A DNA stretch of 24,180 nt, from contig CAZKGX010000001.1 of NCBI GenBank assembly GCA_964552645.1, forward strand, positions 1,011 through 25,190. The letters are read 5' to 3'. This document shows, piece after piece, positions 1,021 to 5,850 of this stretch. How positions within the stretch are numbered: position 1 is the stretch's first letter; the number at the start of each line of letters is the position of its first letter. The position numbers and the translations under genes are program-made. Below the pieces are notes generated by a model. The model searched no databases, had not been told where the DNA came from, and saw nothing but the letters and a program-made list of their open reading frames with translations. This stretch comes from an uncultured Candidatus Saccharibacteria bacterium (GTDB lineage Bacteria > Patescibacteriota > Minisyncoccia > Phycocordibacterales > CAZKGX01).

Positions 1021-1069
1021 ACCTATATATCCATCGGGGAATGTGTCTATTTTCAAACTATATATTTTC

Positions 1070-1078
1070 TGCTATAGT
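1070..1078 (+). promoter_or_regulatory. extended -10 promoter
   Basis: TGcTATAGT. Predicted +1 at about 1085, just before the degenerate tRNA-Ile 5' copy at 1087. Confidence 0.55.
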
Positions 1079-1083
1079 GCCTC

Positions 1084-1108
1084 CACGCGCGCATAGCTGT
1101 TCTGGTAG
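1084..1108 (+). repeat. degenerate copy of the tRNA-Ile 5' end (76 nt upstream)
   Basis: CACGCGCGCATAGCTgttCTGGTAG vs 1160-1184 CACGCGCGCATAGCTcagCTGGTAG: 22/25 identical, first 15 exact. Confidence 0.85.
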
Positions 1109-1162
1109 GTCCTAAACATCTATGCCGTAAGGTGGTTCGTTGAAGTAATATATAAATAACAC

Positions 1163-1235
1163 GCGCGCATAGCTCAGCTGGTAGAGCACATCACTGATAC
1201 TGATGGGGTCCTAGGTTCGACTCCTAGTGCGCGCA
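1163..1235 (+). tRNA. tRNA-Ile(GAT)
   Basis: Acceptor GCGCGCA/TGCGCGC, D arm GCTC/GAGC, anticodon stem CATCA/TGATG with loop CT-GAT-AC (1196-1198), T arm CTAGG-TTCGACT-CCTAG. CCA not encoded. Confidence 0.95.
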
Positions 1236-1264
1236 CAATCTGGTTTCTGGTAAATTTAAATTAA

Positions 1265-1795
1265 ATGAAAAAAACATACATAGCAATATCTTTTGTGGCC
1301 GTTATCTTCAGTATTGCGGGCGTTGCTATATGGATTCTCTATGGTATAAGCATAAATAATCTAGCGGAGGCTAGAAGTAGAGAGAGACGTATGCTCTACT
1401 CCTCATCAATTCCTGGATATGTACTCAATGTATTTAGTGCACCAGATTCTGATTTTAATAAAAATAAAGTGCTCAACATCGGCGATGCATTAAATGTCAA
1501 TTTACCAAATTGGATAGTAAGTAATTGGTCGAGCCGGACTTCGGATGGTGATATTTATATGTTCAATTCCAATGACAGTATTCAGGAGAAATATTTTTCT
1601 GGTATTGTTATTGAACTCAAGCCAACTACAGAACTGTATAATGCAGAATATACGTATACTATTAACAAAACGACAAAAAGTAATTTGCTAATCGCAGAAG
1701 TATTGGTCAATAAAAATGAAGATCTTCGTATTTATCATATACAAAGTCTTTCAGATGACTACATCTATGACGATGATAGTGAAAAAGGTAAGTAA
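1265..1795 (+). CDS. AT-rich hypothetical membrane-anchored protein (176 aa)
   Basis: N-terminal hydrophobic helix (IAISFVAVIFSIAGVAIWILYGI). Sampled lines are about 32-38% GC, versus about 47% in a sampled pyk line. Confidence 0.75.
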   Translation: MKKTYIAISFVAVIFSIAGVAIWILYGISINNLAEARSRERRMLYSSSIPGYVLNVFSAPDSDFNKNKVLNIGDALNVNLPNWIVSNWSSRTSDGDIYMFNSNDSIQEKYFSGIVIELKPTTELYNAEYTYTINKTTKSNLLIAEVLVNKNEDLRIYHIQSLSDDYIYDDDSEKGK

Positions 1796-1832
1796 GCCCA
1801 CAGGTTCGTTTCGTCTCGTAGTACTGCATACC

Positions 1833-1860
1833 TTGAAAAACCACACATTTGTGGTATCCT
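1833..1860 (+). promoter_or_regulatory. sigma70-type promoter for pyk
   Basis: TTGAAA (1833-1838), 16 nt, then TATCCT (1855-1860) preceded by TGn. Confidence 0.5.
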
Positions 1861-1914
1861 TATCGGGCTCATATTTATTTGAAAAAGAGCCTTTTTATTC
1901 GCAACACTACTCAT

Positions 1915-3330
1915 ATGAAACTCAGCAAAAAGACAAAGATCGTGTGTACTATTGGCCCGGCTACTGAATCACAAGAAAAACTCGAAGAGATGCTTAATGC
2001 CGGTATGAACGTTATGCGTCTTAACTTCTCTCACGGTGACTTTGCTGAGCATGCAAAAAAGGTGGTCAATCTCCGCGCGGCCATGAAGAAGACAGGCCTC
2101 AGCGCTGCTATCATGCAGGACCTTAGTGGTCCAAAGTTTCGTATCGGTGACTTTTATAAGGAGCGCGTCACTTTGAATGAAGGTGATTTTATTACCCTTA
2201 CCACTGAGAAAATCACGGGCGATGAGAAGCGCGTCTCTATTAACTATCCGCAATTAATCAAGGAGTTGAAGCCGGGCAATATTATCATGGTGGACGATGG
2301 AAAGAAGAAGTTTGAAGTCGTCTCTGTCAGCGGCACCGAGATCAAATGTAAGATCCTTATTGGTGGCGACACAAAGGGCCGTCGCGGTATTAACCTTCCT
2401 GATGCAAAGCTCTCTATCAGCTCTTTGAGCGATAAGGATAAGGCTGACCTCGCATTTGCTTCAAAGTACGACATTGACTTGGTTGCCTTTTCTTTCGTTC
2501 GCACCGGTGATGATGTTCGCGAGCTCCGCTCTTTGCTCAAGAAAGCAAAGTCAAAGGCTATGATTGTGGCCAAGATTGAGACTCCACAGGCCATCGAAAA
2601 CTTCGATGAAATTCTTGAACTTTCAGATGCTATCATGGTTGCTCGTGGTGATTTGGCTATTGAGCTTGGCTATGAACACGTGCCTCTTGCTCAGAAAATG
2701 ATTATTGAAAAGTGTAACCGCGCAGGAAAGCCGGTGATCACAGCGACACAGATGCTTGAGTCTATGATTAAGAATCCAGTGCCAACCCGCGCTGAAGTAT
2801 CTGACATTGCCAATGCCATCCTCGACGGTACTGACGCTATTATGCTTTCTGAAGAGAGCACCCTCGGCGATTATCCAATCAAGGCAGTTGAAATGATGTC
2901 AAATGTCGCTCGTACGGTTGAAATGGGTCGTTCTCCAATCGACACCCTTGCAAGCGTAGAGATGCGCCATGGTATTACCGATGCAATCAGTGCGAGCGCC
3001 GTTGGTGCTGCCCGCGAAATCGGCGCCACCCTTATTGCTGCTTTGACTGCAACTGGCCGCACTGCTCGCATGCTTTCACGTCACAAGCCGCGTCAGCCGA
3101 TTATGGCCTTTACTCCATCAGAGAAAGTCTTTAGCCAGCTCCAGGTTTCCTATGGATGCTATCCTGTCCTCGTGCCTAAGTTTTCGACCGTATCACAGAT
3201 TATGAATATGGTGCGCAAGGTCGGTCTCGGTGAGAAGGTAACCAAAGAAGGTGATCAGGTCATGATTGTGGGCGGTATGCCATTCGGAAAGACTGACACC
3301 ACAAACATGCTTTTGGTCGAAGTCATTTAG
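1915..3330 (+). CDS. pyk: pyruvate kinase (471 aa)
   Basis: KTKIVCTIGPA, RLNFSHG, AKIET, MVARGDL and TATQMLESM..PTRAEVSDIANAILDGTDAIMLS motifs. Start moved to ATG 1915 (MKLSKKTK). Confidence 0.97.
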   Translation: MKLSKKTKIVCTIGPATESQEKLEEMLNAGMNVMRLNFSHGDFAEHAKKVVNLRAAMKKTGLSAAIMQDLSGPKFRIGDFYKERVTLNEGDFITLTTEKITGDEKRVSINYPQLIKELKPGNIIMVDDGKKKFEVVSVSGTEIKCKILIGGDTKGRRGINLPDAKLSISSLSDKDKADLAFASKYDIDLVAFSFVRTGDDVRELRSLLKKAKSKAMIVAKIETPQAIENFDEILELSDAIMVARGDLAIELGYEHVPLAQKMIIEKCNRAGKPVITATQMLESMIKNPVPTRAEVSDIANAILDGTDAIMLSEESTLGDYPIKAVEMMSNVARTVEMGRSPIDTLASVEMRHGITDAISASAVGAAREIGATLIAALTATGRTARMLSRHKPRQPIMAFTPSEKVFSQLQVSYGCYPVLVPKFSTVSQIMNMVRKVGLGEKVTKEGDQVMIVGGMPFGKTDTTNMLLVEVI

Positions 3331-3338
3331 CATGGCAG

Positions 3339-3381
3339 GTAAAAAGTAAAAGGTAAACAGTAAAAAGTACAGACGAGAGGG
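3339..3381 (+). repeat. heptamer tandem repeat, copy A
   Basis: GTAAAAA GTAAAAG GTAAACA GTAAAAA GTACAGA CGAGAGGG, starting 8 nt after the pyk stop. Confidence 0.8.
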
Positions 3382-3413
3382 AAAAGTAAGAAGGAGGAAA
3401 GGAATCAAACTTC

Positions 3414-3444
3414 AAAAAGCCGCTCGTTGTACGGGCGGTTTTTT
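3414..3444 (+). terminator. intrinsic terminator after pyk
   Basis: AAAAAGCCGCTCG-TTGTA-CGGGCGGTTTTTT. Confidence 0.8.
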
Positions 3445-3490
3445 GATACGGGGGATTTTCTGTTTATAGCATTGTATTTTCTATTCTCTG

Positions 3491-3560
3491 CACCTATTAC
3501 CTATTACCCATCACCTAATCCTCTCTACCTTTTACCTTATACTTTTTACCTTTTACTTTT
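3491..3560 (-). repeat. heptamer tandem repeat, copy B (inverted)
   Basis: Ten in-phase 7-mers on the + strand: CACCTAT TACCTAT TACCCAT CACCTAA TCCTCTC TACCTTT TACCTTA TACTTTT TACCTTT TACTTTT. Confidence 0.8.
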
Positions 3561-3565
3561 ATAAT
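3560..3565 (+). promoter_or_regulatory. -10 box, likely leaderless start of the kinase gene
   Basis: TATAAT 6 nt before ATG 3572, no SD motif. Confidence 0.55.
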
Positions 3566-3571
3566 AGGGTT

Positions 3572-5410
3572 ATGCCTGTGGATCTGTTGATTACGAATGT
3601 GGTCGGTATCCTTTGCGGAGTATTGACCCTTATTATGGGCCTGCTTGTGTTGGTGAAAGGCCGTGATCAAAGTGTTTCTATACCGTTTTTCCTGCTTACT
3701 GTAATGGTGGCAGGCTTCTATGTATCGCACTTACTTGGTATCAATGCCCACAATGCTGAATTTGCCTACGATTCCTTTATGTGGAATTTGGTCAATATTG
3801 GCATTGTGTGCTTCAATACGCATTTTATATTGGCATTGATAGGGAAGGTGCATCGGCGCTTGCCGGCTCTGATTATGATTTATGGCACCGGCATTGTACT
3901 TCTTGTGTTTTATTTGGTATTGCCGGAACAGTTTCTCCTTATGCCGGTATCAAAGATGTATTTGCCATTCTACTATGTGCCGGGGCCGCTCTATTGGCTT
4001 ATGCGCGTCTACTTTGTGGTAGTTGCTGTGTACATGCTTGCTGAGCTGGCTCTCTACTATCGCATTGCCGATGAGATGATGCGCAATCGCCTGCGTTTCG
4101 TCTTTATTTCGCATATTTACGCGTATGCTGTGGGATCAATCGCTCTTTTCCTTGTCTACAATATACCGGTCAATCCAATGTGGGCCATGTTCTTCGGTCT
4201 TTATTTGCCGCCACTGGTCTATGGCATACTCAAATACGATCTCATTGATTTGCGTCTTTTGGCCAAGCGCGCCCTTCTCTATGCTGCCGGCGTGGCCGTC
4301 GTCTCTTTGGTGATGGGTGTTATTACGACGCTCAATACGACCCTTGTAGAGTTGGTGCCGCATTTCTCGCCTTGGATTATTCCTATTGTGTCTGGTGTTA
4401 TTGCCATCGGTATTGCAAGTGTTGTGTGGAATCGCATGCGCGAAGTCGATGTCCTCAAGTATGACTTTATCAGTATTGTGACGCATAAGTTTTGGACGCC
4501 CGTCACTCATATGAAAATGGCCGTCGACGAGCTTAAGGTTGCAGATAGCGATGCGAGTCGAGAGATGTATGTAAAAGAAATTGAATCGAGCGCTAGCCAT
4601 CTTTTTGAATTGACCAAGGTGCTTATTGGCCTCTCTGATACAGAAAATGAAAGTTATCGCTTTACCTCTGCCCCTGTCGATATTTCCGTTATCGTGGCAG
4701 GTCTCATTTCTGATCATAGAAAGGAATTGTCTGAAAAAGAGATTCGCGTTTCCTTCCATCCTGGCAAGGCCATGCCACAAGTGGTCACTGATCGCGAGCA
4801 CATTGGCCTCGCCTTGCGTCTTATTATTGAAAATGCCATAAACTATACGCCGCGCGGCGGTTCTGCTGAGATTAATCTCGCTATGAAGCCTGATTCGCCT
4901 GCTGTGCCCAATCGTATTGCTTGCACCATTAAAGATACCGGTATTGGTATTAGCCAAGAAGAAAAACGCCTCATCTTCGACAAATTCTTCCGCGGCCATC
5001 GCGCTCGTCTTATGTATACCGAGGGCTTGGGCGTGAGTCTCTTTATTGCAAAGCGTATTATAGAGCGAGCGGGAGGTGCATTGCTCGTGCATTCAGATGG
5101 ACTTGATAAGGGGGCTAGTTTCGTGATTGAATTCCCACTGGTGCGGGAGCGCATGGGTATGAGTGGTACCTATAGTGCAAGCGGCGGCAAATACCGCGTG
5201 CCAATGGGCTTTGTAGGCAAGAAAGGTATGTTGAGCCATAGCATCCTCTCTACGCTCATGCGCAATAAAGGCGGAGAGGGCAGCCTTGGCGGCTCACGTG
5301 AAGGCGACGATGGCCCATCAATTTTCTCCGACACATTTATGGACGAAGCAATTGCCCGCGCCCGCCGCGCTATGCGCCGCAAGATTCAAGAGCTGAGGGA
5401 CAAGAAGTAA
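3572..5410 (+). CDS. sensor histidine kinase with N-terminal multi-TM (HisKA_7TM-like) domain
   Basis: About 9 hydrophobic segments; H-box SIVTHKFWTP; N-box IENAINY; G1 KDTGIGI; F-box IFDKFFRG; G2 EGLGVSLFI; C-terminal tail of about 90 aa. Confidence 0.9.
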   Translation: MPVDLLITNVVGILCGVLTLIMGLLVLVKGRDQSVSIPFFLLTVMVAGFYVSHLLGINAHNAEFAYDSFMWNLVNIGIVCFNTHFILALIGKVHRRLPALIMIYGTGIVLLVFYLVLPEQFLLMPVSKMYLPFYYVPGPLYWLMRVYFVVVAVYMLAELALYYRIADEMMRNRLRFVFISHIYAYAVGSIALFLVYNIPVNPMWAMFFGLYLPPLVYGILKYDLIDLRLLAKRALLYAAGVAVVSLVMGVITTLNTTLVELVPHFSPWIIPIVSGVIAIGIASVVWNRMREVDVLKYDFISIVTHKFWTPVTHMKMAVDELKVADSDASREMYVKEIESSASHLFELTKVLIGLSDTENESYRFTSAPVDISVIVAGLISDHRKELSEKEIRVSFHPGKAMPQVVTDREHIGLALRLIIENAINYTPRGGSAEINLAMKPDSPAVPNRIACTIKDTGIGISQEEKRLIFDKFFRGHRARLMYTEGLGVSLFIAKRIIERAGGALLVHSDGLDKGASFVIEFPLVRERMGMSGTYSASGGKYRVPMGFVGKKGMLSHSILSTLMRNKGGEGSLGGSREGDDGPSIFSDTFMDEAIARARRAMRRKIQELRDKK

Positions 5411-5424
5411 AAATAAAAAAGGGA

Positions 5425-5468
5425 GGGCACGTGGCGGAACTGGTATACGCGTACGTCTGTTATGCATA
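5425..5468 (+). pseudogene. 5' fragment of a tRNA-Leu-like gene (76 nt upstream of the intact copy)
   Basis: 5425-5458 is 30/34 identical to 5501-5534. It keeps a D stem (GCG/CGC) and an anticodon-like stem TACGT/GCATA, but has no T-arm 3' strand and no 3' acceptor strand. Confidence 0.8.
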
Positions 5469-5500
5469 TACAAAGCATGGTGGTTCACTTAAACAATATA

Positions 5501-5582
5501 GGGCACGTGGTGAAACTGGTATACACTTACGTCTCAGAAGCGTATCCCGTAAGGGTTGGGAGTTCAAATCTCCCCGTGCCCA
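5501..5582 (+). tRNA. tRNA-Leu(CAG)
   Basis: Acceptor GGGCACG/CGTGCCC, anticodon loop CT-CAG-AA (5535-5537), variable arm CCC-GTAA-GGG, T arm GGGAG-TTCAAAT-CTCCC. Confidence 0.95.
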
Positions 5583-5758
5583 CAACGAATTTGATTTTTT
5601 CTGTATATATCTCTTGGCACGAGCATATCGCCTGCGCGATATGCGAGGGAGATTTGAAGAGCCTGAGTATATTTTTGAGGAGCTATCGCTCCGAAAAAAT
5701 ATGAAGGCTGTACTGTCCCTGTAAGGGACAAATCTCCCCGTGCCCACAACGAATTTGA
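5565..5758 (+). mobile_element. attL/attR-like 30-bp direct repeats enclosing a 134-bp hairpin-rich insert
   Basis: CAAATCTCCCCGTGCCCACAACGAATTTGA is identical at 5565-5594 and 5729-5758. Hairpins at 5623-5644, 5669-5702 and 5714-5730. Confidence 0.7.
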
Positions 5759-5850
5759 GCATTTTCCTTCATTTTTTCTTTAGAAATAATTCATAAAGAT
5801 ATTACTTTTTCTTTATTTTTTCTTCATGCCCTCTGGTGTACAATATACCC

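Follow-up and report, generated by a model that had tools for sequence, protein, structure and literature searches.

The window analyzed in this study is a stretch of 24,180 nucleotides (nt) from the genome of an uncultured Candidatus Saccharibacteria bacterium, which is represented by a 636-kb assembly of 76 contigs with 48% G+C and a completeness of 89%. ARAGORN and Rfam called two intact tRNA genes in it, tRNA-Ile(GAU) and tRNA-Leu(CAG). Each of them is preceded by a short unit that repeats the start of the very gene it stands in front of, and further units of this kind were found at other tRNA genes of the same genome and of its relatives. The coordinates of these features are given in Table 1. 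Those that the first-pass annotation of this DNA had listed for the starts of both tRNA genes and of both copies proved correct throughout.

A repeat finder returned a direct repeat of 25 nt at the Ile locus (1084-1108 versus 1160-1184, 88% identity), which includes three leader bases, and one of 56 nt at the Leu locus (5414-5469 versus 5490-5545, 77% identity). In both cases the two copies lie 76 nt apart. The best 22-mer match to the start of the cognate tRNA agreed at 19 of 22 positions for Ile and at 20 of 22 for Leu. When the 200 nt upstream were shuffled 2,000 times with dinucleotide content preserved, the best agreement reached was 17 for Ile and 15 for Leu, and both observed matches lay above all shuffles. 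The acceptor strand of the Ile copy is identical to that of the tRNA; bases 13 to 16 read GTTC in the copy versus CAGC in the tRNA. The spacer downstream of this copy contains CTATGC, which is able to pair with GCATAG of the copy. The Leu copy represents a second, rarer type. It retains the D-arm by a paired change from GTG/CAC to GCG/CGC and extends to the anticodon loop, which reads CTGTTAT versus CTCAGAA in the tRNA. Neither ARAGORN nor Rfam made a call at the tRNA-start copies, and a search of the whole window with the Rfam covariance models (E ≤ 1) yielded the two tRNAs as the sole believable matches.

Table 1. Features at the tRNA-Ile and tRNA-Leu loci of the window
Feature	Position	Strand	Remarks
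Promoter-like site TTTTCA-17-TATAGT, TG before the -10 element	1050-1078	+	Consensus match only, start not mapped
Class-A unit, copy of tRNA-Ile from -3 to +22	1084-1108	+	
Tail of the Ile unit and A/T-rich spacer	1109-1162	+	Holds CTATGC, GGTGGTTC, and AATATA
tRNA-Ile(GAU), intact	1163-1236	+	ARAGORN; Rfam tRNA, 70.8 bits
Class-B unit, copy of tRNA-Leu from -11 to +45	5414-5469	+	
Leu spacer	5470-5500	+	Holds GGTGGTTC (5479-5486) and AATATA (5495-5500)
tRNA-Leu(CAG), intact	5501-5583	+	ARAGORN; Rfam tRNA, 53.2 bits
30-nt direct repeat, first copy	5565-5594	+	Last 19 nt of tRNA-Leu and 11 nt of trailer
30-nt direct repeat, second copy	5729-5758	+	164 nt downstream of the first copy

An assembly artefact, which the first-pass annotation had considered as a possible source of the duplicated starts, is unlikely. 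A Logan contig, assembled independently from DNA run X1, covers positions 900 to 1208 with zero differences, and the layout of the Ile locus is therefore not an artefact of this particular assembly. The same layout was also present in 46 other genomes.

In a census of the genome, the first 22 nt of each of 26 tRNAs were compared with the 200 nt upstream of the same tRNA. Together with one tRNA that is truncated by a contig end and also bears a copy, units were present at 7 of 27 tRNA loci. Further copies were located upstream of Thr(GGU) (two, at -75 and -114), Lys(UUU) (-70), Phe(GAA) (-76), and Val(GAC) (-74). The class-I copies of this genome read the tRNA's own acceptor strand, followed by a T and AGCTGTYTTGGTAG, at which the genes read AGCTCAGYTGGTAGAGC, and they are distinct from plain decayed duplicates. 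Elsewhere in the genome, the block AGCTGTYTTGGTAG was not found with one mismatch or less. One candidate was rejected: an exact 26-nt copy of a tRNA start that adjoins a run of N upstream of tRNA-Ser(UGA) (G000:C55, 1667-1754, minus strand) is most likely a scaffolding artefact.

The order to which this bacterium belongs (401 genomes) was searched with a pattern in which TAGCT, GGTAG, and a canonical D-arm 40 to 70 nt downstream were fixed and five D-loop bases were left free; 107 loci were fetched for counting. True tandem tRNAs aside, nearly all hits carried GTTTT or GTCTT. The total was 104 copies in 47 of the 401 genomes, distributed over 74 tRNA loci, mostly those for Lys, Val, Thr, Phe, and Ile. 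Bases 13 to 17 read GTTTT in 51 copies and GTCTT in 38, whereas GACTT and GACAT were rare. Among 393 genomes of other orders of the phylum, for which the reversed pattern served as a control and gave eight hits, there was no true unit. Three pattern hits were obtained outside the order and none of them was at a tRNA, so the GTY rewrite can be regarded as a signature of this order.

In the common form of the unit, the tRNA gene is copied from approximately -10 to +12, bases 13 to 15 are changed from CAG to GTY, TTGGTAG is retained, and a tail follows; the copied part comprises -10 to +12 and bases 16 to 22 of the tRNA 5' end. Because the start of a unit is copied from the gene that it precedes, it always matches the acceptor strand of that tRNA. 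The 7-nt acceptor copy was identical to that of its own tRNA in 80 of 104 cases and one base off in 20. The likeness reaches beyond the gene itself: the 12 nt before the copy had an identity of 0.51 to the 12 nt before the same tRNA and of 0.37 to those before other tRNAs (p < 0.002). This flank identity declines gradually and has no fixed end length.

It is the fixed rewrite of bases 13 to 15 that the family shares, and not GGTGGTTC-N8-AATATA, which the first-pass annotation had put forward as the common motif. The individual words were located correctly, with GGTGGTTC at 1131-1138 and 5479-5486, AATATA at 1147-1152 and 5495-5500, and TATGC at 1121 and 5461. Within the genome, the composite motif is confined to these two leaders; the other five that contain a unit lack it. 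The 3' ends of leaders generally tend to carry AATAT (25 of 61 spacers), and the only recurring spacer words were weak ones of the AAGGT/AGGTA types at +35 to +49. The idea that GGTGGTTC represents a remnant of a T-loop or a family motif was dropped as well, with GTTCR words in only 3 of 49 leaders. DNA run X1 derives from a related strain or species which has the same Leu copy (window positions 5423-5465), the same 76-nt period, and a different 33-nt stretch of spacer. The Leu spacer of this relative is of equal length and contains neither GGTGGTTC nor the composite motif.

The spacing of exactly 76 nt holds for Ile and Leu but is not a rule. Offsets cluster at 38 to 42, 55 to 59, and 70 to 80 nt, where the composite pattern saw only offsets of 55 to 85 nt directly and an offset-free search gave mostly 67 to 76 nt. 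Units form tandem arrays with a period of 36 to 42 nt. Within arrays, the copy nearest to the tRNA had 0.27 mismatches to it, compared with 1.86 for the farthest (p = 0.003). Since copies at clustered offsets occur at other tRNAs of this genome and of its relatives, the outcome that the first-pass annotation had named as refuting its observation did not arise; the pattern is general and requires an explanation beyond independent decay, as that annotation had argued. One explanation for the near-tRNA-length period would be whole tandem tRNA duplicates that have since decayed. Offsets of 70 to 80 nt are indeed close to the length of a tRNA, and the Leu copy spans the whole anticodon arm. However, no similarity of the leaders to their own tRNA was detected beyond base 22 (mean z of -0.22, 49 leaders), and words of the T-loop were found in just three of these leaders. 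The period at tRNA-Leu is 76 nt, although this tRNA is 83 nt long, many other periods measure only 36 to 42 nt, and an identical rewrite arising through independent decays is implausible. Decayed duplicates are thus largely refuted and very unlikely to be the source of the units.

The anticodon loop, in which the Leu copy breaks, is a classic integrase crossover site. Integrases are also known to leave partial tRNA copies (PMC9897764), and the units might accordingly be attL/attR-type scars of an integration that replaced the 5' part of the tRNA gene. We consider this highly improbable. The "element" between the repeats would measure merely 30 to 54 nt, no integrase gene is located nearby, and the single tyrosine recombinase gene of the genome resides on another contig. 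Bases 13 to 15 differ systematically between copy and gene. Integrase crossover models were also rejected on logic, as a crossover would leave CAG in both copies and a separate element would be required for each tRNA, yet one module serves many tRNAs.

The tail of a unit is 12 to 24 nt long, and within a genome it is similar even where the units stand at different tRNA genes. At positions 23 to 34, tail identity was 5.06 of 12 within genomes versus 3.91 of 12 between families (p = 0.001). The excess within genomes was weaker at positions 35 to 46 (p = 0.01) and nil at positions 47 to 58. For instance, the Lys and Thr units of genome G213 agree at 11 of 12 tail positions and the Val and Lys units of G131 at 10 of 12, while a rare GAC rewrite together with an ACA tail is common to the Thr and Phe units of G097. 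Because tails are shared between loci, the units at different loci must be related to each other and were not made afresh at each tRNA.

Such sharing of one module, including its rare derived forms, between different tRNAs of one genome (G097, G213, and G131) would be in line with a gene-less mobile module of approximately 26 to 30 nt (GTY-TTGGTAG-tail), whose start looks like a D-loop and which is moved by an unknown enzyme. Its insertion site would lie between bases 12 and 13 in any tRNA gene that has the AGCTCAGYTGGTAGAGC D-arm, and about 16 to 22 nt of target would be duplicated, so that an intact single-copy gene is rebuilt downstream and the old start is left dead. The flanks agree with the host gene in the way expected of a target duplication, and the distribution of units across families is patchy. 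At three loci of relatives, L064 (copy at -271), L066 (-179), and L008 (-199), a G+C-rich hairpin, e.g., CCTGCC...GGCAGG, interrupts the copy precisely at the rewritten triplet, which also agrees with insertion at this site. On the other hand, the units differ from a transposon or a miniature inverted-repeat transposable element (MITE). A fold and hairpin test revealed no general terminal inverted repeats, a right end is not defined, and the gradually fading flank identity does not amount to a target duplication of fixed length. The start of the supposed module resembles the D-loop itself. No transposase family was found in the 89%-complete genome, in which Y1, TnpB, IS110, rve, and Cas1 genes were searched for and not detected. 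A partner integrase, reverse transcriptase, or nuclease gene, which the first-pass annotation had suggested looking for, is absent from the window. The genome encodes one reverse transcriptase domain (G000:C6:6692-7336, in an open reading frame of 377 amino acids). Such domains were present in 16 of the 47 unit-bearing genomes, compared with 167 of all 401 in the order, which indicates that they are not linked to the units. Taken together, a mobile module appears unlikely.

We infer that the units are part of the transcribed 5' leader. At the Ile locus, the copy had been described in the first-pass annotation as sitting directly behind an extended -10 promoter. The promoter-like site does end 8 nt before the copy, as a match to the consensus only, and transcription is predicted to start at approximately position 1085, 1 to 2 nt upstream of the copy. 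Promoter-like sites upstream of the copy were identified at 3 of the 7 loci (Ile, Phe, and Thr), at a distance of 1 to 14 nt. None was called for the Leu, Val, and truncated loci, and the Lys site is too close to the tRNA. Across the order, neither copies nor tRNAs showed a positional peak that would correspond to a fixed -10 box. The genome contains a full-length RNase P RNA (80 bits). Bacterial RNase P favors A-4, A-2, and U-1 in its substrates; the bases before unit-bearing tRNAs were A-4 in 69%, A-2 in 77%, and T-1 in 73% of cases.

If located in the leader, a unit could serve the tRNA precursor as an acceptor-strand mimic that acts in cis, holds the 3' acceptor strand or engages RNase P, and thereby times or checks maturation. 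The rewritten D-loop would then stop the unit from forming a false tRNA. Several observations are consistent with such a function. The match to the acceptor strand persists where spacers have become saturated, with all seven bases agreeing in 80 of 104 copies, and the signature at -4, -2, and -1, which is favored by RNase P, is retained before copies. Occupancy of eligible tRNAs in this genome is high, and the Ile copy is where the transcript is predicted to begin. In the predicted minimum-energy fold of the Leu precursor, the upstream copy pairs with the 3' strand of the tRNA; the Ile leader is predicted to be able to fold the copy onto CTATGC while leaving the cloverleaf intact. However, the fold z-scores of both precursors were not significant, being no better than those of shuffled sequences. 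A conserved hairpin was not detected in the units (mean z of -0.16 versus shuffled tails, p = 0.2), nor was there a common anti-acceptor partner: leader segments complementary to the copied acceptor strand gave p = 0.21 overall and were strong in loci L003, L079, L035, and L097. Moreover, units were not found in approximately 85% of the searched genomes of the order or outside it, their number varies from 1 to 4, and in arrays recent units are identical whereas distal ones are decaying. A function in tRNA maturation is therefore doubtful, albeit conceivable. Readings of the rewritten block as a boxA-like, promoter-like, or RNase E site were dropped by eye due to poor fit, with no tool test.

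The reading that we favor, with a probability of roughly 45%, is that the units constitute a lineage-specific, duplicative, and self-homogenizing repeat family which forms part of the transcribed leader and is trimmed away by RNase P. Local partial duplication or slippage would create and multiply units, and short conversion tracts that are seeded within a shared 15-mer would keep those at different loci similar. Units would be transcribed within the 5' leader from a promoter upstream of the copy and cut off by RNase P along with it. Through the rewritten triplet, C13, A14, and G15 would be lost, bases on which the D stem and the tRNA core are built, and a copy without them could not replace the real 5' part of the gene. 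Units would thus be tolerated passengers that are not needed by the tRNA, and the Leu copy would belong to a less common sister type that breaks off in the anticodon loop. Relatives likewise have upstream copies in which the D-arm (CAG) is unaltered, at tRNA-Ile(UAU), Thr(CGU), and Val(UAC) (loci L101, L103, L104, L105, and L106). Their breakpoints are at bases 24 to 27 or in the anticodon loop (bases 33 to 36), and one of them forms a 61-nt tandem array.

A number of results weigh against the passenger reading. Slippage does not explain why the same three-base rewrite occurs in nearly every unit, nor the constant end at base 22. In comparisons between species of the same genus, the copy shows the same degree of conservation as the tRNA (0.86 to 1.0), whereas the remaining spacer is near random (0.33 to 0.64), and this could fit selection as well as conversion. 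Part of the invariance of the copy is imposed by the search pattern, in which 10 of 22 positions are fixed. Copies are preceded by the same A-2/T-1 signature as real tRNA starts, and most of the eligible tRNAs of unit-bearing genomes are occupied (by our own reading, about 6 of 8 in this genome). Three wastewater metatranscriptome runs offered the region as contigs only, with tRNA parts that derive from other organisms and 5' ends that could not be read. The evidence is compatible with both of the broad alternatives in the first-pass annotation, the footprint of a duplicative process that targets tRNA genes and a functional leader that mimics the acceptor strand.

The genes next to both tRNAs are housekeeping genes, with pyruvate kinase, a HATPase_c-domain gene, and RadC among the neighbors. 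A subthreshold Rfam match to "HIV-1 SL3" at positions 1361 to 1377 (24 bits) is a chance hairpin within the open reading frame at 1265 to 1795.

Copies of tRNA starts are a real and widespread feature within one order of tiny-genome bacteria of the candidate phyla radiation (CPR)/Patescibacteria type that apparently has not been described before. Full-text literature searches, conducted in an incomplete library, returned no paper on repeats of tRNA 5' starts in leaders. In approximately one genome in six to eight of the order, several tRNA genes carry extra DNA derived from their own starts, which is always disabled in the same manner. The setting is notable, as the genomes are minimal and their tRNA genes single-copy. 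Should the units be passengers, a leader trimmed by RNase P would represent a safe harbor for repeats in streamlined genomes. If they instead act on the precursor, they would constitute a new cis-acting device in tRNA maturation. In practice, tRNA-start copies can mislead tRNA annotation, finders of att sites, and assemblers.

Partial tRNA genes have otherwise been ascribed to kilobase-scale integrations or to spacers of clustered regularly interspaced short palindromic repeats (CRISPR) (PMC9897764). Like the units, att sites are direct repeats of a part of a tRNA gene beside the intact gene, a 5' copy being the rare orientation. They differ in that they enclose a kilobase-sized insert and come with an integrase, whereas the insert of a unit is 30 to 64 nt, an integrase is lacking, one module serves many tRNAs, and the copy is rewritten. 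Zhao and Williams are said to have described, in 2002, a rare case of reversed orientation of the partial tRNA copy at an integrated element. The units resemble ordinary 5' leaders of tRNA precursors in their location between a promoter-like site and tRNA position +1, their A/T-rich composition, and the T at -1, and RNase P RNA is likewise present in the genome; what an ordinary leader lacks is a copy of the start of its own tRNA. Similarly to repetitive extragenic palindromic (REP) or MITE-like repeats, units are short and gene-less, occur in many copies per genome, and are more alike within than between genomes. In contrast to those repeats, they have no terminal inverted repeats or general hairpin, no RAYT/Y1 gene was found, their flanks are copied from the host gene, and they are placed strictly at the starts of tRNA genes.

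The tRNA-linked repeats (TLRs) of Escherichia coli offer a further comparison. They are located in operons for tRNAs and rRNAs (Egan and Landy 1978; Stenum et al. 2021, PMC8144298), where they copy the last 18 to 19 nt of the tRNA downstream of it, and those of tRNA operons have no known function (PMC8144298). Both TLRs and the units are short and non-coding, reside in stable-RNA operons as an exact copy of one end of the neighboring tRNA, and occur singly or in small arrays. TLRs, however, are downstream copies of the last 18 to 19 nt, whereas units are upstream and consist of bases 1 to 12 plus leader with a fixed three-base rewrite of the D-loop. Neither TLRs nor the integration and CRISPR accounts fit an upstream unit of 40 to 76 nt with such a rewrite. 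The window also contains a repeat whose layout does resemble a TLR, namely, the one at 5729 to 5758, which lies downstream and copies the tRNA 3' end and adjoining trailer at 30 of 30 positions. A look-alike of the variable-arm hairpin stands ahead of it, the insert between the two 30-nt copies measures 134 nt, and a weak similarity continues past the second copy (5591-5610 versus 5768-5787). The regions behind tRNA-Leu(UAG) (G000:C20, approximately 4576-4720, plus strand) and tRNA-Ser(GGA) (G000:C26, approximately 3977-4148, minus strand) have a G+C-rich core of about 80 nt in common (...GGGGTCGCGAACATTTCYGAGCGACGG...), and either region terminates with the final 19 nt of the tRNA that it follows, as a 3' counterpart of the 5' units. 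If the passenger reading is true, the units would in turn be the 5' counterpart to the long-unexplained tRNA-linked repeats of E. coli.

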